A stretch of DNA of 64,000 nucleotides from Candidatus Acidiferrum sp. (GTDB taxonomy: Bacteria > Acidobacteriota > Terriglobia > Acidiferrales > UBA7541): the NCBI GenBank assembly GCA_035313865.1, contig DATFZY010000035.1, forward strand, positions 466 through 64,465, given 5' to 3'. This document shows, one piece after another, positions 4,572 to 44,707 of the stretch (position 1 is the first letter of the stretch; each line of letters begins with the position of its first letter). The position numbers were made by a program, and so were the translations under genes. Under the pieces are notes generated by a model. The model did not search any database and was not told the DNA's origin. It saw nothing but the letters and a program-made list of their open reading frames with translations.

Positions 4572-6596
4572 ATGTTTTCTGACCACGACCACCAGTCCGC
4601 AGCTTCAGCCCCCGCTCCCGCACCAGATTCAGAGCCAATCCAGAACAGCACCTCAACGGAAGCCAGTCCGGACCACACCAGTGTGTCCGAACCAGTTGCG
4701 CACGAGAGCGCACCTGAGCACGCCTCAGCGGCGAGCGAGGGCGCGGAAGGCTCGCACGGCAAGCCTGCAGAAGCCGCGTCAGCTCCCGTAGCAGTCGCGG
4801 AAGCTCCAGCCGCCTCCGAAGTACACGCCATCACAGCTCCAGTTCCGGCGGACGCGGAAGCCACAGCCGCCGCCGAAGAAGCCGCCGGCTCCGAAGAGAT
4901 GAGCAAGCTGATGGAGCAGTACGACGAGCAGCACGAAGCTGCCTCGCAAAACGAAATTATAGAAGTAAAGGTTGTCGCCTACACGGAGCACGGCGTAGTC
5001 GTGGACCTCGGCGGAAAAACCGAAGGCCTGATCCCCGCGGTGGAATTCTCCGAGACGGACATTCCGCGTCCCGAGCCCAACGCCACCATCGAAGTCCAGC
5101 GCACTGGCGAGCACAAAGACGGCTTCACGATTCTCTCGTATCAAAAAGTTCTCCGCCGCCGCACTTGGGAAAAGATCGAAGCCGCCTTCAAAGCCAAGGA
5201 AACCATCACCGGCAAAGTGGTCGACCGCATCAAGGGCGGCCTCGTCGTGGACATCGGCGTCCGCGCGTTCCTCCCTGGCTCGCAATTTGACCTGCGCCCC
5301 ACGCAGAACCTCGACGATCTGAATGGCACCGAAGTCCAGGTCCGCGTTACCAAACTCAACCGCCGCCGCGGCAACGTTGTCGTCAGCCGCCGCGCGCTTC
5401 TCGAGGAAGAGCTGCACGCCAAGCGCGCCCAACTCATGGAAACGCTGCAAGAAGGCCAAGTCGTGCACGGCCACGTGAAAAACGTCACCGAGTACGGCGC
5501 ATTCGTAGATCTCGGCGGCATCGACGGCCTGCTGCACCTCACCGACCTGAGCTGGGGCCGCGTCAAGCATCCATCCGACGTCGTCAAGCCGGAGCAAGAG
5601 CTCGATGTCATCATTCTCAAATTCGACAAGGAAAAGCAGCGCGTCTCGCTCGGCCTGAAGCAGCTCATGCCCGACCCGTGGGTAAACGCCTCAGAAAAGT
5701 ATCCCGCCGGCGGCAAAGTGAAGGGCAAAGTAGTCGGCGTTGTTGACTACGGCGTCTTCGTAGAACTCGAGCAGGGCATCGAAGGCCTCGTCCACGTCAC
5801 CGAGCTCAGCTGGTCCAAAAAAGTCCAGCATCCCTCGAAGCTCTTCAAAGTGGGCGAAGAAGTCGACGTCGTCGTGCTGGACATCAAGCCCAGCGACCGC
5901 CGCGTCTCTCTCGGCATCAAGCAAGCTCTGCCGGATCCCTGGCTTCTCATCGCGGACAAATATCCCGTCGGCACTATCGTCACCGGCAAGGTCCGCAACA
6001 TCGCCGAATTCGGCGCCTTCATCGAAATCGAAGAAGGCTTTGACGGCCTTGTCCACGTCGGCGACGTAAGCTGGACCGAGCGCATCAAGAATCCGCATGA
6101 AGTTTTCAAGAAGGGCGAGCCGGTCACCGCAAAAGTTCTGAAGATCGATCCGGAAAACCGCCGCGTCTCCCTGGGCATCAAGCAGGTCAATGACATCTGG
6201 GGCGAGTGGTTCAAGCAGCACAAGGTCGGCCAGATCGTCAAAGGCAAAGTTTCGCGCATCGCCACGTTCGGCGCCTTCGTGGAGCTCGGCGAAAATATCG
6301 AAGCTCTCTGTCACAACACCGAGATCGAGGAGCGCAAGCGCCGCGATGACGTCCACTCTCCCATGCACCGCACCAGCACCGGCCCGCTCAAGAGCGCCGG
6401 TCCGCTCGAACCGGGCAAGGAATACGACTTCAAAATCATAAAAATCAGCCCGGAAACGCGCCGCATTGGGTTAAGCTATCGCGCCGCCGCCAAGCAGATC
6501 GAGCGCAAGGAAATCGAGCAATATCGCTCCACGTCAAAGTCTTCATCGACCGCGACGATTGGCGACGCGCTCAAGTCCAAGCTCTCGGCTCGGTAA
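4572..6596 (+). CDS. rpsA: 30S ribosomal protein S1
   Basis: Repeated S1 domains (YGAFVDLGGIDGLLH, YGVFVELEQGIEGLVH, FGAFIEIEEGFDGLVH) and a long acidic N-terminal extension. Confidence 0.97.
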   Translation: MFSDHDHQSAASAPAPAPDSEPIQNSTSTEASPDHTSVSEPVAHESAPEHASAASEGAEGSHGKPAEAASAPVAVAEAPAASEVHAITAPVPADAEATAAAEEAAGSEEMSKLMEQYDEQHEAASQNEIIEVKVVAYTEHGVVVDLGGKTEGLIPAVEFSETDIPRPEPNATIEVQRTGEHKDGFTILSYQKVLRRRTWEKIEAAFKAKETITGKVVDRIKGGLVVDIGVRAFLPGSQFDLRPTQNLDDLNGTEVQVRVTKLNRRRGNVVVSRRALLEEELHAKRAQLMETLQEGQVVHGHVKNVTEYGAFVDLGGIDGLLHLTDLSWGRVKHPSDVVKPEQELDVIILKFDKEKQRVSLGLKQLMPDPWVNASEKYPAGGKVKGKVVGVVDYGVFVELEQGIEGLVHVTELSWSKKVQHPSKLFKVGEEVDVVVLDIKPSDRRVSLGIKQALPDPWLLIADKYPVGTIVTGKVRNIAEFGAFIEIEEGFDGLVHVGDVSWTERIKNPHEVFKKGEPVTAKVLKIDPENRRVSLGIKQVNDIWGEWFKQHKVGQIVKGKVSRIATFGAFVELGENIEALCHNTEIEERKRRDDVHSPMHRTSTGPLKSAGPLEPGKEYDFKIIKISPETRRIGLSYRAAAKQIERKEIEQYRSTSKSSSTATIGDALKSKLSAR

Positions 6597-36534: not shown

Positions 36535-37719
36535 TCAGGGCTTGCCGTCGCGGCCATATTTTCGCGCGAGACGAAATGGACGTCCGAGGGCATCGAGAAA
36601 CCAGTGGCGCTTGTTTTCTTCGCCTTCGACCCAGTCTTCCTCGGTGGGCGAAAAAGATAGCCGAAAAAGATAGCCGAGCCCGGAAAAACCGCCGCCGTAC
36701 ATGCCGATGCGAAACTTAGCGCGTTCAACAATTCCCGTCGGCGCCGTACCGGCTGCTGGAAGCCACCGAATAATCTGAGAAGACAGGCGGCCGACGGCGC
36801 GGTCCGATCGCACAGCCGCTGCGATTGCATCAGGTAGCGGAGCACCGAGCATATCGGCGGCCAATCGCAGGCCGACTTGTAACATGCGTTCCGCCCCAAC
36901 CTCTTCGGCGGCTGACTTCACGAGCGCCCAATCGAGTTGCTGCCGGGAGACGAAGGCGGCCACGTCGGCGATATAAACAAGGCGCTCCCAAAAATGCTTC
37001 GCTCCGTGAATACAAATCAGGATCAGTTCGTCTTCCGGCGAAAGCGCGGGAACCTCGTGCGCATCGAACTTTTCGCGCACTTGCCGGCGAAAGAGCGCTT
37101 CCAACGGAAGGGGTTTCGGATGATAACGGAAGGTAAGCTCGGTGTGGAATTCGATCAGGAGCTTCGTGGTGGGCTGCCGAAAATTGTATTCGCCGGGAAT
37201 TTTTTTAGCATGAATGGCGGTCAACGGGACGCTGGGGGCGTATCCGAGGCCAAGCATGAGTTCCGTGGAGCGCAGAATATCGTTGTCGCGCACGATCAAA
37301 TCCAGATCGCCGTATTGGCGCAAGCCTGGATCGCCGTAACTACGCACGGAAAGCACCGGCCCTTTAATCACCAGCGCCTCGATGCCGGAGGCGGCAAAGC
37401 GATCGAAGAGCCGGAACATCTCCGCGCTCAAATTCAGGGTGAAAAGGGTGTGATTGCGGCGCCAGACGCGCAGAGCATCGCGATTTTCCGGCGGAATGAC
37501 CGCTTCGTTGAAGTCAAACAGGCGGGCGACGGTTAACCCGAGGACACCGTGGTCTTCCGCGAATGCAATCAGTGATGGCCAGTCGAGACGAGCGCGGAGT
37601 TTTTCGGCAAGGCGCTGGCGGTCCGGTTGCGGCCTGGCGCACTCGAGCAGCAGCGTCCACTCCGCTTCAAGAACTTCCGCATCCTGTGGCAGTGTTTCCG
37701 TCAGAAAATCCCCCAGCAA
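36535..37719 (-). CDS. Nucleotidyltransferase (NTP_transf_5-like), lasso-cluster tailoring enzyme
   Basis: IKGP.L....Y.DPGLR..GDLDLIV, IEFH, CIHGAKH.W.RL...D motifs; last gene of the lasso operon. Confidence 0.85.
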   Translation of the reverse strand: MLGDFLTETLPQDAEVLEAEWTLLLECARPQPDRQRLAEKLRARLDWPSLIAFAEDHGVLGLTVARLFDFNEAVIPPENRDALRVWRRNHTLFTLNLSAEMFRLFDRFAASGIEALVIKGPVLSVRSYGDPGLRQYGDLDLIVRDNDILRSTELMLGLGYAPSVPLTAIHAKKIPGEYNFRQPTTKLLIEFHTELTFRYHPKPLPLEALFRRQVREKFDAHEVPALSPEDELILICIHGAKHFWERLVYIADVAAFVSRQQLDWALVKSAAEEVGAERMLQVGLRLAADMLGAPLPDAIAAAVRSDRAVGRLSSQIIRWLPAAGTAPTGIVERAKFRIGMYGGGFSGLGYLFRLSFSPTEEDWVEGEENKRHWFLDALGRPFRLARKYGRDGKP

Positions 37720-37756: not shown

Positions 37757-38899
37757 CTAGCGGGAAAATCTTTCGGCCAAAGCAGAAACGCGCCGGAAGG
37801 CATCTTCCGGGCGGCGAAAAACCTTTGGGAATTGTTCCGCGGCGGCTTGCGCGATTTCCTGCAAAGGCGCGATGCCGTCCATGGCCTGAAGGAGCCAGCG
37901 TTCCGCCAGACCCGCCTCCGTGAGGAGAGGAACGTAATCCGCCGCGCGGCGACGAAGAGTCTCGGACATGAATTGCGCGCCTTCAAAAGTGGACTGGCGA
38001 AAAACTCGTTCGCGTTGACCGTTATGAGCGGCGATCCTGGTATCCCAGCGCCAGATGTAGTCGCCGCCGACGGGATCGGCGTGCAAATCAACTTCAATCT
38101 CCTGCCCGGCCTCCAGAGCTACGGGTTCAAGCCAAGGAAGAAAACCCTGACCGTAGACGGTCCCCGCGGGTCCCGGTCCGGTCGAGAATCCGATGTTTTC
38201 AAAGAGCTTCGTTTCAAACCAGGCGCTCACTCCATGCCCAATCCCGCTGCGCGTTGCGCGGAATCGCATCTTTGCGGAAGCGCGGGTATTCAGGTGCGCC
38301 GTGTAATCCAGCGTGCACCAGTTTTGCGGATCCGTCAGGAGCTGCTCCTTTTTCGAGCGCAGTTTGTAAACACCATTCAGAAGGAGCGGAAGCGGAGCGG
38401 AAAGATCGATCTCGCTCCCCGGCTCCTTCCATGGCGAGGTGATGCGCTCGTAATAGTCAGGAGCTTCGACGATGGCAGCGTAGAGGGTGTCGCGCTCGGG
38501 AATCTGCGTTCCGCCCTCCTTCAAAAAGCGCACCCTGGCGTCCTCAATCGACGGCAGCGCGTCATCAAAGAGCGGCAAGGCTCCACGCACATCGGAAACA
38601 ACGACGTTCGCGCGTTCGGGCAGCTGGACTTGCCTGGAATCCTCGTGGATAAATTGGATGCGATCCGCAAAGCCATTGCTGGCGGCCAACTGCCGCGCGA
38701 GGTGAACGATGTCCCCGCCTTCGATCGCATAAACGCGCTTCGCACCGGCGCGGCAAGCCAGCAGCGCAAAGATTCCGGGACCGCAGCCGAGGTCGACGAC
38801 GACATCGCCGGGACGCACGGCGCGGCTGATGGCATCGGCGTACGCTCCAAAGCGCGCCTTGTCGGCGATCATGTCGCCAAATTCATTGAGAAGGTACAT
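37757..38899 (-). CDS. PRMT-fold class I SAM-dependent methyltransferase, lasso-cluster tailoring enzyme
   Basis: M..D..R..AY, VVDLGCGPGI, AGAKRVYAIE, LPE.A.VVVSD, RFLK.GG..IP, HG..AWF, STGP; collinear with eukaryotic PRMT cores. Confidence 0.8.
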   Translation of the reverse strand: MYLLNEFGDMIADKARFGAYADAISRAVRPGDVVVDLGCGPGIFALLACRAGAKRVYAIEGGDIVHLARQLAASNGFADRIQFIHEDSRQVQLPERANVVVSDVRGALPLFDDALPSIEDARVRFLKEGGTQIPERDTLYAAIVEAPDYYERITSPWKEPGSEIDLSAPLPLLLNGVYKLRSKKEQLLTDPQNWCTLDYTAHLNTRASAKMRFRATRSGIGHGVSAWFETKLFENIGFSTGPGPAGTVYGQGFLPWLEPVALEAGQEIEVDLHADPVGGDYIWRWDTRIAAHNGQRERVFRQSTFEGAQFMSETLRRRAADYVPLLTEAGLAERWLLQAMDGIAPLQEIAQAAAEQFPKVFRRPEDAFRRVSALAERFSR

Positions 38900-38900
38900 T

Positions 38901-39914
38901 TCAGCGGCCGGCCGCGGCGCCCAGGCTCACCTGGCTGGCCAGCAAACGGGTGGCATCGGCAAGAATCAGCTCGGAGAGAGCGCCGATCCGCGATGGATCG
39001 CTGTGAGGAACAATTCGCCGAACCGGAATCTGTGAAACCAGGCGAGAGAGCAGTTCGAATTCCGCCGCACGTTGCGCGCGGTCCAGAAGCCAATTCATAT
39101 ACGTATTCTGGACTAGTTCCAGAAGCACATCGCGACTGCTCACCTCTTCAATCCGCGGAGCATTCTCCATTTCTCGCGGACCAAGAATATAAACGGCTCC
39201 AAGAGGTTGCTTGCGGGATTCCAGGCTGGCTTTCACGCCATCCAACTGCAAATAACATTTGTCCCAGTTTGGCGCAATCCGCGGCAGTGCGTCCCGGTGT
39301 CCCATCAGCATCTCGACGGATTCGGGCCACAAACAAACGCGTGGATATCCCGCCTCGACGGCGAAACCTCCACCGGTTTCCTCGACCGCAGCAATATCCT
39401 CGCAAAGAACCGGCAATCCAAGCAGTCCCAACGCCGCCGCAGTCGTGGACTTTCCAGCTCCAGCCTCACCGGTCAGCAGAATAGCCTTGCCGTCCACGCA
39501 TAGCGCGCTGGCATGCAGCGCCGTGATTCCTCGCCGGCGCAAAATGAATCCCATGACAGGTCCGAGCAAATAGGTGGAAAGGTCCTGGATTGTTTGGCCG
39601 TCGCCAGGGATGCCCCAAATGGAGGTTGCCTCGCCGTTCACTACAAAGCGAGTCCCATCAGAATAGGCCAGTTGAAAAAATTTCCCAACTCCCAGAGAAG
39701 TAAGTACGAAGGCAGGGTCCTGCGTTTCCGGAGAGGCTGCAATACTTTGAAGAACCGCGCGTGGCAGCTCGAGCGCTTCTCGCACCCATAAAGGTTCGCG
39801 GCACAACTCCAGGCGAACGCCCGCGCGACACGAGCCGTCAATTTCCTCGTTCAATCCGGGAATTGGAGAATCGGAAGAGAGGTCCAGGCCGTAAGTACGA
39901 TAGCGGTAAGTCAC
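38901..39914 (-). CDS. HPr kinase-like (PadeK/ThcoK-type) peptide kinase
   Basis: YLLGPVMG..L..RG...LHAS, GEAGAGKST Walker A, L.EDI, P...LWP; immediately downstream of the precursor. Confidence 0.85.
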   Translation of the reverse strand: MTYRYRTYGLDLSSDSPIPGLNEEIDGSCRAGVRLELCREPLWVREALELPRAVLQSIAASPETQDPAFVLTSLGVGKFFQLAYSDGTRFVVNGEATSIWGIPGDGQTIQDLSTYLLGPVMGFILRRRGITALHASALCVDGKAILLTGEAGAGKSTTAAALGLLGLPVLCEDIAAVEETGGGFAVEAGYPRVCLWPESVEMLMGHRDALPRIAPNWDKCYLQLDGVKASLESRKQPLGAVYILGPREMENAPRIEEVSSRDVLLELVQNTYMNWLLDRAQRAAEFELLSRLVSQIPVRRIVPHSDPSRIGALSELILADATRLLASQVSLGAAAGR

Positions 39915-39957
39915 GAAAGGCCAGCACAGAGATAGCTACGTATCAGGGAGAGCACCC

Positions 39958-40110
39958 TTAGCCGGTCTTGCGCATGTTAATAGGCGTCTTCGCCCCGTCC
40001 AAAGTCCCCTTATTCGTCTTGGCCCGGGTCATCTCCGTTAAATTTCCATAGACAAGAAGTTTGGGTGCTCGGTAGGGCTTTTTCGCAGATGCCTCAGACT
40101 GCGGCCTCAT
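39958..40110 (-). CDS. Lasso peptide precursor (50 aa; not in the ORF track)
   Basis: MRPQSEASAKKPYRAPKLLVYGNLTEMTR-AKTNKGTLDGAKTPINMRKTG*: YxxPxL motif, conserved G, Thr at -2, core Asp9; ATG abuts the cyclase TGA, with GGGGGA upstream. Confidence 0.9.
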   Translation of the reverse strand: MRPQSEASAKKPYRAPKLLVYGNLTEMTRAKTNKGTLDGAKTPINMRKTG

Positions 40111-41982
40111 TCAGTTTCCCCCGATTCGACTGTACTGAATACTTTGTTCGTTTTCAACGCTTTTCAGCCAATAATCAAGAGCAATGGGCCGCAGGTCGGC
40201 CCACAATGCCAAACCTAAACCCCGGGCGGGGTGAGAAGTTGCGCTGAGCATTCTGCAGTTTACAAACATCCGCAGTCTCTCGCAAGCCCCGTCTTGCAGG
40301 GCCGGCTTCCAACTATTTTTTTCGGAATGGAGAAGGAGCGGGTCGCCTTGCAAAGGCGTCTTGCGGCGGGTGCGTATTTCCTCGGGCAATAGACCTTGCA
40401 TCGAGTCGCGAAGAAGTTCTTTATTCATACACCAGGGCACCGGGGGTACGCGTAGGAGGAAACGGATCAAACGTTGATCGTGCAAAGGAGCGCGCGTTTC
40501 CACCGGCACACCTGTCCAGCCCGAATCTTCGGGCTCATAGATGCTGGGCCAGTACGCGGTGGTCAACGAGGCATGCCCGGCGGGATGAAGCGGATGTTGC
40601 TCTTTGGCGGGCTGCTGCAACTCTCGCCAACGATCGCGCAGATGCCACTCCTGCTCAAAGGTCGGTTCCAGCCACGGAGGATAATCCACCGTTTCCTGCG
40701 CGCGGCCCATCCAGCGCCGCAAACGCGTTCGAAGCCCTGCGCGCAATGGTGGAAATCTGCCGTGACGGAGCATGTACCCACCGAACGACCGCGCCATTGT
40801 GCCCAGGTGGCCTCCCTGCAACAGCTGGACGAGATACGGCCAGGCGCGCCCGGTCAGAATGTCGTCGCCGCCGTCGCCAGTGAGCATCACGCGCCACTGC
40901 ATGGCTACCTGGCGGTAATGCTCGACGTGCAGTGCAAAAAACGGTTCAACACAAGGCTCCGGAGTGCTCAGCCCCAGCTCGTCCCATCCACCAAATGGCG
41001 GGCACGAAGCTCCCGAGAGGATCTCGATGGGAATGCCGAGGTGCTTCGCGGCCCGCGACGCGAGTGTGCCCTCCTCGTCCTCAAAAAGCGGAGTGTAATC
41101 CACGGTGTACGCACGCAGCGAATCCCGGACGCCTCGCGCGACCTGCACCTTGCCGGCGATCGCCGCGACGCTCGTGGAGTCCAGTCCTCCACTCATGAAA
41201 ATTCCCGCCGCGCCCTGCGGCAAGCGGTCCCGCACAGCTTCTTCCAGGTGTCCGCGAAAGGCCTCGATGTACTCTTCGCGCCGCCTCAATAAGAGCGGCT
41301 CTTCGATAGGCAGGCTCGTGTAACGGCGCACCTGCACTTCTCCATTCGAAAAGTGCAGAGCGTGGCCCGCCGTCAACCGGCGCACATCGCGATACGCAGT
41401 GCGTTCGGGATCAGAGCACCAGGATTGCAGCAGAAAGTCGCCGATAAAATATGGGTCGAGCTTCGCGGATACTTCTGGCGCAAGCCGCACGGTGTTGAGT
41501 GTGTTGCTGAAAATAAGCTGGCCGCCAACGTGTGCGTAAAAGAAGGGTCTGGCGCCCAGCAGACTGCGCGCGCACCACAACTCTTTCGCTTCCGAATCCC
41601 AAAGCGCAAACGAAAAATCTCCGATCAAAGTCTCAAAACTTTTTTCGGCCCACAGTCGCCACGCCCGCAGAATCAACTCTTCATCGGTGGTGTCCGCGGG
41701 AGCCTTTTCTCCATGCTGCTCGAGCCTTCGGCGCATCTCCTCGCGCCCGTCCAGCCGCACATCGCCCAGCAGCCAGACTCGGCCATCCAGGGAACACGGC
41801 TGTGCGGCGGCTTGCGGAGACGGACCGGTTCGCAGCAGAGTGAAACAGAATCCCGCCCCGGGGCGCATCCAGACCTGCGTCGCATCCGGCCCGCGAAATG
41901 CCAGGCTCTCTGCCATTCGCTCAATGATGCGGACATCGGGCGTTCCGCCGTCCGGGCGCACAATCCCCGCAAACCCGCTCAT
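40111..41982 (-). CDS. Lasso cyclase (asparagine synthetase-like isopeptide-bond-forming enzyme, C protein)
   Basis: N-terminal MSG instead of the catalytic MCG, SGGLDST PP-loop, LTGDGGD, R.P..D.R, K.LLR..M.GLLP..I..R.K. Confidence 0.92.
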   Translation of the reverse strand: MSGFAGIVRPDGGTPDVRIIERMAESLAFRGPDATQVWMRPGAGFCFTLLRTGPSPQAAAQPCSLDGRVWLLGDVRLDGREEMRRRLEQHGEKAPADTTDEELILRAWRLWAEKSFETLIGDFSFALWDSEAKELWCARSLLGARPFFYAHVGGQLIFSNTLNTVRLAPEVSAKLDPYFIGDFLLQSWCSDPERTAYRDVRRLTAGHALHFSNGEVQVRRYTSLPIEEPLLLRRREEYIEAFRGHLEEAVRDRLPQGAAGIFMSGGLDSTSVAAIAGKVQVARGVRDSLRAYTVDYTPLFEDEEGTLASRAAKHLGIPIEILSGASCPPFGGWDELGLSTPEPCVEPFFALHVEHYRQVAMQWRVMLTGDGGDDILTGRAWPYLVQLLQGGHLGTMARSFGGYMLRHGRFPPLRAGLRTRLRRWMGRAQETVDYPPWLEPTFEQEWHLRDRWRELQQPAKEQHPLHPAGHASLTTAYWPSIYEPEDSGWTGVPVETRAPLHDQRLIRFLLRVPPVPWCMNKELLRDSMQGLLPEEIRTRRKTPLQGDPLLLHSEKNSWKPALQDGACERLRMFVNCRMLSATSHPARGLGLALWADLRPIALDYWLKSVENEQSIQYSRIGGN

Positions 41983-42443
41983 CGCGGCCCCGGCGGCAGA
42001 GAGGACAGCGCCGCGTCAAACGCAGCATAATGCTCGTGGAGCGCTTCCGGCTCATTCAACGCAGTCCCCGCGCGCTCCACCCAGGCATGCGCCTCGAATT
42101 TTTCGGCCTCTTTGCGAACGCCAATGCGCAGTTCGCAAGCAATCCCCTGGCGCCCCAGCAGCCACCACAATGCAAGCGATTCTTCCAGGCAGGTGGGATG
42201 ACCACCACTGTGACGCACCGCGGCGCGCACCATGCGCGCCGTGCTTTCCGCAGCTGCGGCGGGCACTGAACTATCGGGCCGCTCCTTGGGCGGGGAAAGA
42301 AACCTTTGCAGGAAGGCCTGAGTCTTACGAAATCCGCGCAGGCGCAAACTCATGGAAATCAGGGGCAACAATGCCGCCGCACGCAGGAAAAGCCCGCGCG
42401 CCGGGCGCTCCAGCGCGCTAAACCGTCGAAGCCGTTCCCACAT
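41979..42443 (-). CDS. Lasso leader peptidase (B2, transglutaminase-like)
   Basis: TCL..SL...W.L...G...LRIGV...F.AHAWVE; real ATG at 42443 within ORF 41979..42614. Confidence 0.92.
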   Translation of the reverse strand: MWERLRRFSALERPARGLFLRAAALLPLISMSLRLRGFRKTQAFLQRFLSPPKERPDSSVPAAAAESTARMVRAAVRHSGGHPTCLEESLALWWLLGRQGIACELRIGVRKEAEKFEAHAWVERAGTALNEPEALHEHYAAFDAALSSLPPGPR

Positions 42444-42723
42444 CGGCAGGCTGAATCTGTAGCAATCCGTTTTCGACGAGCCGCCCCAGGAGTTCCGTGA
42501 GGTGCAACCGCAGCAGTTCGGACTCGACGTCGAACTCGTTCTGGAGCTCCTGATAGGCAGCGTCAATGCTCGGCGCAGCAGTGACCACCTGCCACATGCG
42601 CGTCCCGGTTTCATCCAGGCCGAAGTAACGCTCCGTCTCCAAATTCAAAAGCACGGATTCCCTATCGAGAAAACGCACCAGCACATGCGGCACCGTTCCA
42701 GCGCGATCTGCGAATGACACCAT
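42418..42723 (-). CDS. RiPP recognition element (PqqD-family, B1)
   Basis: ESVLLNL....YFGLDETG..MW...L..EFDV...L..L...GLL. Confidence 0.92.
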   Translation of the reverse strand: MVSFADRAGTVPHVLVRFLDRESVLLNLETERYFGLDETGTRMWQVVTAAPSIDAAYQELQNEFDVESELLRLHLTELLGRLVENGLLQIQPADVGTASTV

Positions 42724-43040: not shown

Positions 43041-43895
43041 TTGTCTTCGCGCCACAGACACGCTATAAGTTTTGTCGTGCCGGAAGCCGCGATTGCTGTT
43101 GCATCCCTCGAAAAATTGTTTCCGCCCGCGCGCAGCGGCTGGCGCGCTTTCTTGCAGCCATTTGAAAAACCGTCCGTGGTCGCGCTCGCCGGAATTTCCT
43201 TCGAGGTTCGCCCCGGCGAAGCGTTGGCGCTCTTGGGTGCAAACGGCGCGGGAAAATCGACCCTCCTCAAAATTCTCGCCACGCTGCTTCTTCCCACGCA
43301 TGGCCATGCGCAAATCGCCGGACACGATGCCGTTCTCGACCCGCGCGCCGTCCGCCGCCAGATCGGCTATCATGCCGGCAGTGACCTCGGCTTTTACGCG
43401 CGACTCACCGGCCGCCAAAATCTGCGCTTCTTCGGGCGCCTCAATCATCTTTCGGACGCCGCCTCTGCGCAGCGTATCGCGCTGCTCTCGGAACAGTTCC
43501 ATCTCGGAGAAGCACTCGACCGCCAGCTCCGCACGCTCTCCTCGGGAACGGTCCAGCGTCTGAGTCTCGCTCGCGCCCTGCTCCACCAACCGCACGTACT
43601 TCTGCTCGACGAACCCACTCGCAGCCTGGACGCCATCGCTGCCTCTGAATTTCGCCGCTTCCTCAAATCCGAAGTCCTCAGCCGCGGCGACACTTCCCTG
43701 CTCTTCGCTTCGCATACTCTGCCCGAAGTCGAGATGCTCGCCGACCGCGTCGCCGTGATTGATGCGGGACGTCTCGTCACCTGCGACACTCCCGCTGCCT
43801 TGAAGCGCACCACGAACGCTGCATCGCTAGAAGACGCCTTCATGCGCCTGACGGGTCGCTCCCCACATCTCACCGGAGAGGGAACCCCGGAATGA
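43041..43895 (+). CDS. ABC transporter ATP-binding protein (exporter type)
   Basis: GANGAGKST, LSSG..QR, LLLDEPT, ASH; start may be GTG 43077. Confidence 0.92.
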   Translation: MSSRHRHAISFVVPEAAIAVASLEKLFPPARSGWRAFLQPFEKPSVVALAGISFEVRPGEALALLGANGAGKSTLLKILATLLLPTHGHAQIAGHDAVLDPRAVRRQIGYHAGSDLGFYARLTGRQNLRFFGRLNHLSDAASAQRIALLSEQFHLGEALDRQLRTLSSGTVQRLSLARALLHQPHVLLLDEPTRSLDAIAASEFRRFLKSEVLSRGDTSLLFASHTLPEVEMLADRVAVIDAGRLVTCDTPAALKRTTNAASLEDAFMRLTGRSPHLTGEGTPE

Positions 43896-44707
43896 CGCGC
43901 AGCCTGCGCGAGTTGTGGGCTTTCTTCTGGCGCGACCTCTCCATCGCGCGCACCTACCGCACCGTCTTCGTGCTCGAAGCCCTCGAAGCGCTGTTCGGAG
44001 TGGCCATGTTTTTTTATGTCGCGCGCTTCGTGGACAGCCCGCAGCTCCGGAACGCGCTCCCGCAGGGCGGAGGCTACTTCGCTTTTTCCCTAATCGGCTT
44101 CGTCTTCCTCGATTATCTCAACGCCGCGATGGACACCTTCGACCGAAGCCTCGAAGAAGCCCGCGACTCCGGCACGCTCGAACATCTGCTGGTCACGCAG
44201 ACTTCTCTCCCCGTCATTCTGGCCGGCTCAGCAATCTATCCTTTCGCAGTGACAACGCTGCGCATAGCCGTCTACGTCGCCTGGGGCGCACTGTTCTTCG
44301 GGTTTCCGCTGCGCGGTGCAAACTGGCTCGCCGTAGCCGCGGTGCTCCTCGCCACTCTGCTCGCTTTTTCCGGACTGGGAATTCTCTCCGCAAGCTATCT
44401 CCTGCTCTTCAAGCGCGGCAATCCCGCGAAGTGGTTCCTCCTCGGCGTTTCCAGCGTTGCCGGCGGCATGCTGTTTCCCATCAGCGTGCTTCCCGATTGG
44501 CTTCAGATAGTGGCCCGGTTGAATCCTGTCACTTACGCGCTAGACGCTATGCGCGCCGCTCTTCTCGGCGGCGCGGATGTGCAAGCCGTCTGGCGCCCGC
44601 TGATCGTCCTTCTCATTTTCAGCGCAGTCCTTCTGCCCCTTTCCATGGCGGTATTCTCCTGGGCGCTTCGCCGCACCAAAACCACGGGAACTCTAATGCA
44701 CCGCTAG
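43892..44707 (+). CDS. ABC-2 type permease
   Basis: GTLE.LL, FPISVLP.WLQ..A..NP.TY..D..R; about 6 TM helices; ATGA overlap. Confidence 0.9.
   Translation: MTRSLRELWAFFWRDLSIARTYRTVFVLEALEALFGVAMFFYVARFVDSPQLRNALPQGGGYFAFSLIGFVFLDYLNAAMDTFDRSLEEARDSGTLEHLLVTQTSLPVILAGSAIYPFAVTTLRIAVYVAWGALFFGFPLRGANWLAVAAVLLATLLAFSGLGILSASYLLLFKRGNPAKWFLLGVSSVAGGMLFPISVLPDWLQIVARLNPVTYALDAMRAALLGGADVQAVWRPLIVLLIFSAVLLPLSMAVFSWALRRTKTTGTLMHR

Follow-up and report, generated by a model that had tools for sequence, protein, structure and literature searches.

We analysed a 64,000-nucleotide stretch of DNA from the acidobacterium Candidatus Acidiferrum sp. (contig DATFZY010000035.1, positions 466 to 64,465; hereafter the window), which carries an operon for a lasso peptide on its minus strand. 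The seven genes of this operon are co-directional and tightly packed, in the order B1, B2, C, precursor, kinase, methyltransferase and nucleotidyltransferase, and the sixth, the methyltransferase gene, is the subject of this study. The gene encodes an S-adenosylmethionine (SAM)-dependent enzyme with the fold of the protein arginine methyltransferases (PRMTs) and with intact SAM-binding residues. We conclude that the enzyme probably adds an uncharacterised methyl mark in the lasso operon, and that the single arginine of the predicted core peptide is probably not the site. The genes of the operon and the adjoining exporter are as follows:

36535-37719, minus strand: PF14907 nucleotidyltransferase N, last gene of the operon (Pfam NTP_transf_5, E 2.6e-49)
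37757-38899, minus strand: methyltransferase gene, 380 amino acids (P0001), identified from its open reading frame (ORF), translation and PRMT homology; stop codon at 37757-37759
38901-39914, minus strand: HprK-like peptide kinase K (Pfam Hpr_kinase_C, weak; NCBIfam HprK_rel_A; GEAGAGKST P-loop in the translation)
39958-40110, minus strand: lasso precursor, 50 amino acids (P0002), identified from its translation, DNA and an alignment of 39 precursors (NCBIfam lasso_cyano E 3e-6, below the cut-off)
40111-41982, minus strand: lasso cyclase C, asparagine-synthetase-like (Pfam Asn_synthase and GATase_7; top NCBIfam match lass_lactam_cya)
41979-42443, minus strand: transglutaminase-like leader peptidase B2 (Pfam Transglut_core3; NCBIfam lasso_biosyn_B2, 87 bits against a cut-off of 33)
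42418-42723, minus strand: B1, a stand-alone PqqD-type RiPP recognition element (RRE; RiPP, a peptide made by the ribosome and modified after translation) (Pfam PqqD E 9e-14; NCBIfam lasso_PqqD_Bac)
43041-44707, plus strand: divergent ABC exporter, with an ATPase (43041-43895) and an ABC-2 permease (43892-44707) (Pfam ABC_tran and ABC2_membrane)

Together, the YxxPxL leader with Thr at position -2, the B1 RRE, the B2 peptidase, the asparagine-synthetase-like cyclase and the HprK-like kinase are the features of a kinase-type lasso cluster, and the ABC exporter adjoining it is kept in close relatives. The DNA sequence of the junction places the ATG of the methyltransferase gene 1 nucleotide after the stop codon of the kinase gene. 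A previous reading of this DNA from its sequence alone (the sequence-only reading) had given the methyltransferase the range 37934-38899. That range covers residues 1-322; the full ORF, 37757-38899, adds about 58 amino acids.

The sequence-only reading had also aligned the protein by eye with the PRMT core of Rossmann domain plus beta-barrel, and database searches bore this out. A phmmer search of the Protein Data Bank (PDB) matched PRMT6 (E 2e-23), PRMT1/Hmt1 (8e-23), and PRMT2, PRMT3 and CARM1 (1e-21 to 1e-19), with the alignment spanning residues 9-271 and thus including the barrel. Pfam PRMT_C matched the protein with 32.2 bits (cut-off 27), and also matched 104 of 112 homologues in a diverse alignment that reached down to ~38% identity. 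An AlphaFold2 model built from this 112-sequence alignment had a mean predicted local distance difference test (pLDDT) score of 95.8 and a predicted template modeling score of 0.88; it superseded a first AlphaFold model from 27 close homologues, which was too uncertain (pLDDT 66.7). Searching structures with the model, Foldseek placed PRMT6, PRMT2 and PRMT1 on top (E 3e-30, ~320 columns, target template modeling score 0.73-0.86). VIA-align, which is independent of Foldseek, returned PRMT3 (Z 34.4, root-mean-square deviation 2.0, 294 residues aligned), PRMT2 (34.3), PRMT6 (33.7), CARM1 (33.3) and PRMT10 (33-34), with PRMT5, PRMT7 and PRMT9 at Z 25-29. After a gap came PrmA (Z 13.5, 119 aligned) and Trm5 (13.3), each covering only ~120 Rossmann residues. 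The sequence-only reading had named PrmA, or an enzyme lacking the barrel, as the best structural match that would speak against it; the best matches are PRMTs with the barrel, and since PrmA lies so far below them, that objection falls away. Alignments to PRMT3, PRMT2, PRMT6 and CARM1 covered model residues 1 to 305 or 308 (294-306 aligned), so that the PRMT part of the protein ends at about residue 308. We divided the protein accordingly:

38495-38899, minus strand: short N-terminal helix (M10, D13, R16, Y20) and Rossmann SAM-binding domain, residues 1-135 (PRMT6 alignment, homologue conservation, secondary structure of the model)
38774-38800, minus strand: motif I, VVDLGCGPG, within the Rossmann domain; the post-I acid is E60
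38558-38593, minus strand: equivalent of the double-E loop, residues 103-114, D103-V-R105-G106-A-L-P109-L-F-D112-D-A (homologue conservation)
37976-38494, minus strand: PRMT-type beta-barrel, residues 136-308 (Pfam PRMT_C; VIA-align)
38150-38161, minus strand: T247-V248-Y249-G250, at the position of the THW loop (HMMER alignment; homologue conservation)
37760-37975, minus strand: mainly helical C-terminal tail, residues 309-380, outside the PRMT fold (helices of the model; no PRMT match covers it)

Motif I, the post-I acid E60, the R16 of the N-terminal helix that serves the SAM carboxylate, and the PRMT beta-barrel are thus all present. R16, G38 and G40 are invariant among the 112 homologues, and the SAM residues G42 and E60 are conserved too.

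By contrast with the SAM site, the substrate pocket departs from that of PRMTs. In the HMMER alignment, SDVRGALPLFDDAL pairs with SEWMGYGLLHESML of PRMT6, placing D103 at the first Glu and D112 at the second Glu of the double-E loop, and STGPGPAGTVYGQ pairs with STSPLHPATHWKQ, placing T247-V248-Y249 at Thr-His-Trp (THW). Position 103 is Asp in 110 of the 112 homologues, position 105 is Arg in 91 and His in 15, and G106 and P109 are kept in 109 and 111, respectively. Position 112 varies (Gly in 38, Gln in 19, Glu in 14, Asp in 11), even among relatives at least 59% identical. The sequence-only reading had proposed a double-D loop from D103 and D112; their spacing is as it described in the window protein, but it reflects nothing beyond chance, since even close relatives differ at position 112, and the family has no conserved double-D loop. 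The change from THW to TVY, which it had also noted, is present in the alignment: Y249 is kept in 101 and G250 in 96 of the homologues, and the family-wide form is [T/L/S/A]-[I/V]-Y. The signature of the family is therefore S-D-x-[R/H]-G-x-L-P plus [I/V]-Y-G, as read from the alignment, in place of the Glu...Glu and Thr-His-Trp clamp of PRMTs. With an Asp first and no conserved second acid in the loop, and TVY for THW, two defining features of PRMTs are absent, and the enzyme is best termed PRMT-fold rather than a PRMT. Distant relatives (L065, L068, L069, L073 and L074) combine a true S/T-E-x-x-G...E loop with (S/T)-H-W or S-W, the (S/T)HW form being retained in L068, L073 and L074; the window enzyme is therefore a member of a derived clade, where the two arginine-clamping elements have changed together.

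The tail (residues 309-380) forms helices at 312-317, 328-339, 346-356 and 364-378 in the model, and was never aligned in whole-model searches of the PDB with Foldseek or VIA-align. It is possibly a winged-helix or RRE-like peptide-binding domain, although the tests that bear on this are weak: Pfam PqqD matched residues 335-377 at E 0.1 (1.2e-3 in the relative L073; E<=0.01 in 2 of the 112 homologues), hhalign gave a probability of 7.9% for the tail profile against the B1 profile, and an ESM Atlas feature search with residues 300-380 returned only sub-threshold leads, among them the winged-helix domain of a protein lysine methyltransferase (PKMT) at 0.79. We also considered tail-less methyltransferases directly followed by a B1 gene (L049, L055) as split forms of the same protein, but tailed enzymes (L063, L064) also precede B1, making the arrangement non-discriminating.

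We next asked how widespread the enzyme is and what accompanies it. A protein search of a database clustered at 90% identity found 1,668 proteins at E<=1e-3 among 8,000 candidates; the 120 best matches are 59-98% identical to the query and almost all 379-380 amino acids long. An exhaustive search of representatives at 50% identity found 1,377 clusters at E<=1e-30, the top 150 being full-length at ~40% identity. In contigs from one genome per species, at least 424 stretches encode a relative, and we kept 80 loci from these for counting. In 56 of the 80 loci the kinase gene lies directly upstream on the same strand; in another 5 it is directly downstream, and in 8 it has some other place in the locus. 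We could detect a lasso cyclase in 60 loci and a PF14907 nucleotidyltransferase in 43. The hosts include Acidobacteriota, Cyanobacteria, Alpha- and Gammaproteobacteria, Gemmatimonadota and others. The methyltransferase thus belongs to a conserved three-enzyme tailoring cassette, with the HprK-like kinase and the PF14907 nucleotidyltransferase, in the lasso operon. NCBIfam has no model for this enzyme type, homologues carry database names as different as 'protein arginine N-methyltransferase 1' and '50S ribosomal protein L11 methyltransferase', and literature searches, whose coverage excluded most subscription journals, found no published characterisation.

Two of the loci with canonical double-E enzymes, from an Aminicenantia metagenome-assembled genome (MAG; L073:133-5520) and a Desantisbacteria MAG (L074:4809-9733), are radical-SAM/SPASM RiPP loci rather than lasso loci. 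Their gene order is PqqD, radical SAM enzyme, precursor, a gene in the kinase position, the canonical double-E methyltransferase, an S24-like peptidase, PF14907 and an ABC transporter. The gene in the kinase position has an HprK-like Pfam match in L074 and no Pfam match in L073, and both loci count among those without a kinase in the 80. Their precursors end in T or S, and that of L073 is Arg-rich (…CGRGRRFRQLGT). At least in L074, the set of kinase, methyltransferase and nucleotidyltransferase looks like a portable cassette older than the switch in the active site, and loci of this type may be where a bacterial RiPP undergoes true arginine methylation.

Some relatives stand apart from this pattern. 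Full-length methyltransferases of the SD-x-RG type occur with no kinase or lasso genes within ~7 kb at L011:7001-8143, L018:6881-8143 and L052:3150-4301; Tyr249 is His in the first two, and the first is flanked by ORFs of ~1,000 amino acids on the opposite strand. Shortened or interrupted methyltransferase frames follow an intact kinase at L042:7001-8146, L054:7001-7771, L056:7001-7645, G291:C105:65664-65948 and G094:C281:41605-41967. Pseudogenization or mistakes in long-read assembly may account for them; in G291, a different contig carries a second copy that is intact.

We then considered what the precursors reveal about the acceptor. The window precursor has a leader of the form YxxPxL..YG....T-x, followed by the predicted core AKTNKGTLDGAKTPINMRKTG (39961-40023). 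As the sequence-only reading had claimed, translation and DNA give this core a single Arg, at position 18 (39970-39972), followed by K19 (39967-39969) and T20 (39964-39966). In an alignment of 39 predicted precursors, Y13, P16, Y21, G22, T28 and D38 are invariant, D38 being the ring Asp (D9 of the window core), and T49 is conserved in at least 90%. This near-C-terminal Thr (Ser in three precursors), which lies 0-4 residues from the end and corresponds to T20 in the window, is thus nearly invariant. The residue before it is Lys in at least 70% of the 39 precursors, and Arg in L008, L010, L014, L016, L019 and L020. By contrast, the column of R18 varies freely (R, K, M, V, S, T, A, F, Q, N, H, D), although M-R-K-T is common to the closest relatives (L001-L004, L006 and L036). 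We also counted residues in the 50 predicted cores that lie beside SD-x-RG-type enzymes. Arg is absent from 19 of them, Lys from 5, and both from one (L057, FGGSGSADFFGEMMGM), whereas all 50 contain Ser or Thr. Since the R18 column is free and 19 of the 50 cores beside the same type of enzyme lack Arg, R18 is not the acceptor of the enzyme family, contrary to the proposal of the sequence-only reading, and an Arg-specific activity appears unlikely for this clade from the sequences compared. Its fallback, that the altered motifs would redirect the enzyme to Lys or another group, is favoured by this evidence.

The end of the core provides a further comparison. Among the 50 cores, 37 end in [KR][ST]x0-4 and 48 have Lys or Arg in the last six residues. 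For a set with the kinase only, we used both proteins as queries against 301 genomes of the phylum, and kinase loci without a nearby methyltransferase yielded 14 credible precursors; 3 of these have the [KR][ST]x0-4 end, and 9 have Lys or Arg in the last six residues. Nominal Fisher p values for the two differences are 0.001 and 0.004, which overstate significance, given a small sample of relatives that are not independent of one another. This sequence comparison suggests that a C-terminal basic residue goes with the methyltransferase more than with the kinase.

Three observations on the precursors stand beside these counts. Known lasso-peptide rings have 7-9 residues, and the window core has a predicted ring of 9. 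In L001-L003, L005, L010, L024-L026, L029 and others (precursor genes near 5780-5940), the ring Asp is at core position 10, and in L070 it is at 11; these counts assume cleavage after Thr(-2), and would give rings larger than 7-9 residues. The kinase-only lasso cluster L081:5951-6310 (B1, B2, C, two precursors and K) belongs to a genome of the same family as that of the window (G014, 100% complete), in which no methyltransferase was detectable genome-wide. One of its precursors still ends …IIRTRV, and an R-T tail is therefore possible without a methyltransferase. Finally, a second precursor class in L053, L060, L072 and L077 (Proteobacteria) starts (A/G)G(S/T)G and ends RRL, RKL, RRP or RPRP; this class is similar to the BsfA type, which is phosphorylated at Ser3, and is found in loci with a methyltransferase as well as in loci without one (kinase-only loci L103 and L108).

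The reading that we favour, tentatively, is N-methylation of the basic residue adjoining the Thr of the kinase, which in the window is K19. The kinase would phosphorylate T20, in analogy to the C-terminal Ser that is modified in paeninodin-type peptides. The methyltransferase would take the linear precursor, leader still attached, and act within this same C-terminal stretch, with D103 (the retained acid) and Y249 holding a side-chain nitrogen, and the methyl group would go to the nitrogen of the residue before the Thr, i.e. K19 here and Arg in some relatives. Possible ligands of R105 are the neighbouring phosphate, the carboxylate at the C-terminus and that of SAM, and the helical tail may help to hold the peptide. 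The pocket may also have a dual role, with recognition of the basic side chain by D103 and of the phosphate by R105. An acid at the end of strand beta-4 is how amine- and guanidine-methylating class I enzymes, such as PRMTs and those with (D/N)PPY or DxxY motifs, hold the acceptor nitrogen. Near-invariance of D103 with loss of the second acid therefore favours a nitrogen acceptor over an anionic one, and N-methylation is our best guess because this beta-4 acid is kept, Y249 is conserved, and a basic residue is associated with the presence of the methyltransferase. Consistent with an ancestral methylation of a basic residue near the phospho-acceptor, the canonical double-E/THW relatives in radical-SAM RiPP loci adjoin Arg-rich peptides ending in T or S.

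Several points weigh against N-methylation at this site. Alternation of Lys (~70%) and Arg before the Thr appears more typical of electrostatic recognition than of a specific acceptor; the L057 core lies beside an SD-x-RG enzyme and has no Lys or Arg at all; a near-invariant Arg or His two residues after D103 is odd in a cation-binding pocket; and three kinase-only clusters carry R-T too. We looked among the relatives for active-site residues that track Lys versus Arg before the Thr, and saw no pattern. A complex prediction with the methyltransferase alignment, SAM and the precursor alignment scored 0.00, which says neither for nor against binding.

The main rival to this reading, which we consider unlikely, is that the phosphate placed on T20 by the kinase is itself what the methyltransferase methylates, with an O-methyl-phosphothreonine diester as the product. 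The near-obligate adjacency of kinase and methyltransferase across phyla and two RiPP classes would fit such a sequence of steps, as would the presence of Ser or Thr in all 50 cores where Arg or Lys may be absent, and a pocket with one acid fewer plus the invariant Arg/His at 105 would suit an anion. There is also a documented precedent for a kinase and methyltransferase that make a methyl phosphate: in E. coli O9a, the bifunctional WbdD first places a phosphate on a terminal mannose and next methylates that phosphate (PMC3482155). Against this, D103 is kept in 110 of the 112 homologues, and without a bridging metal, a carboxylate this close to the acceptor would be expected to repel phosphate. 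The side chain of R105 may face SAM instead of the substrate, if it resembles the E+2 residues of PRMT structures, which we take to be its equivalents. Methylation of the phosphate also leaves the tracking of the basic residue with the methyltransferase unexplained. We know of no PRMT-fold phosphate methyltransferase, nor, to our knowledge, has O-methyl-phosphothreonine been described for ribosomal peptides or proteins; if this alternative were true, the clade would be the first PRMT-fold enzyme switched from nitrogen to phosphate-oxygen methylation. A different acceptor, such as the C-terminal carboxylate (as in lassomycin-type peptides), a Ser/Thr hydroxyl, a backbone amide or a group added by the nucleotidyltransferase, seems quite unlikely. 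The C-terminus is one group that every precursor has, L057 included, R105 could bind a carboxylate, and lasso peptides modified to C-terminal methyl esters are known (PMC9266682). However, the known lasso carboxyl methyltransferases belong to other families that the window protein does not match, conservation of D103 speaks against an anionic acceptor, and the conserved Thr lies at no fixed distance from the C-terminus (0 to 4 residues).

A genuine arginine methyltransferase acting on R18, the principal proposal of the sequence-only reading, is in our view very unlikely. The full PRMT fold, the location of R18 within the conserved C-terminal stretch (M-R-K-T in the closest relatives) and the probable action of the canonical relatives on Arg are in its favour; they are set against the unconserved R18 column, the 19 cores without Arg beside the same SD-x-RG enzyme type, and the family-wide replacement of the guanidinium-clamping second Glu and of the His and Trp of THW. 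It is exceedingly improbable that the gene encodes a housekeeping enzyme, for example a ribosomal protein L11 methyltransferase, that merely lies beside the cluster. Although NCBI-derived names of homologues include '50S ribosomal protein L11 methyltransferase' and PrmA is the top Pfam match by E-value, PrmA matches the Rossmann part only (Z 13.5 over 119 residues, against Z 34 for PRMTs), and NCBIfam prmA (TIGR00406) scores 31.5 bits against a cut-off of 183. Moreover, synteny with lasso genes is kept across phyla, and only 39 of the 301 genomes in the phylum sample have a homologue, unlike a housekeeping gene.

Soil metagenomes from several studies contain near-identical DNA. Contigs of three soil metatranscriptome libraries from two studies match the window at >=99%. 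The precursor gene is covered in full (39938-40120 and 39963-40113), and the genes for the kinase, the cyclase and B1/B2 are covered in part (39146-39491, 41023-41535 and 42379-42657). The methyltransferase gene is not among the parts covered, an absence that is uninformative. These matches are a weak hint that the operon is transcribed in situ, as DNA carry-over is possible.

Lasso peptides are stable scaffolds of pharmaceutical interest for which few tailoring reactions are known. The enzyme family described here is large, almost always linked to a peptide kinase and apparently uncharacterised, and whether the acceptor is a side-chain nitrogen, as in the N-methylation that we favour, or a phosphate, it would add a new methyl mark to these peptides. 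It would also provide a natural example of a PRMT active site whose specificity has shifted from arginine to something else. The canonical double-E enzymes of the radical-SAM RiPP loci suggest that bacteria also carry out true arginine methylation on ribosomal natural products.

Comparison with known systems places the enzyme as follows. Under the phosphate-methylation alternative, its order of action, with a kinase and then a methyltransferase on one terminal residue, would resemble that of WbdD; no homology is claimed, as the WbdD substrate is a polysaccharide and its methyltransferase domain is not PRMT-like. The cluster is like those of paeninodin (PadeK), pseudomycoidin (PsmK/PsmN) and the Bradymonas sediminis bsf system (BsfK/BsfN; PMC10368454) in having A, B1, B2, C, an ABC exporter, an HprK-like kinase and PF14907, with the same YxxPxL motif in the precursor leader, but the clusters as described have no methyltransferase (PMC10368454, PMC9266682). 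Their phosphorylation sites are the C-terminal Ser or Ser3, whereas the conserved candidate here is a Thr 0-4 residues from the C-terminus that follows Lys or Arg. With eukaryotic type I PRMTs (PRMT6, PRMT1/Hmt1, PRMT2, PRMT3 and CARM1), the enzyme shares the two-domain architecture, 22-27% identity over ~300 residues and Z scores of 33-34. It differs from them in having Asp as the first double-E residue with the second Glu unconserved, [T/S/L]-[I/V]-Y for THW, a near-invariant Arg/His two residues past the Asp, a shortened N-terminal YFxxY helix, an extra helical tail of ~70 amino acids, and a putative substrate that is a ribosomal peptide from a biosynthetic operon, often without Arg. The methyltransferases known from lasso clusters are C-terminal carboxyl O-methyltransferases of the StspM/LasF type and the PIMT-like TceM/LihM, which make C-terminal methyl esters or aspartimides (PMC9266682). 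The sequence-only reading had held that the window enzyme would differ from both, and it does: PF00891 (Methyltransf_2) and PF01135 (PCMT) have no match in the query, and match 1 and 7 of the 112 homologues, respectively, all weakly. All of these enzymes have in common the SAM-dependent tailoring of a lasso precursor or peptide, which in the window is proposed; StspM/LasF and TceM/LihM belong to other families whose folds differ past the Rossmann core, while the window enzyme has the PRMT barrel and an acidic pocket residue.

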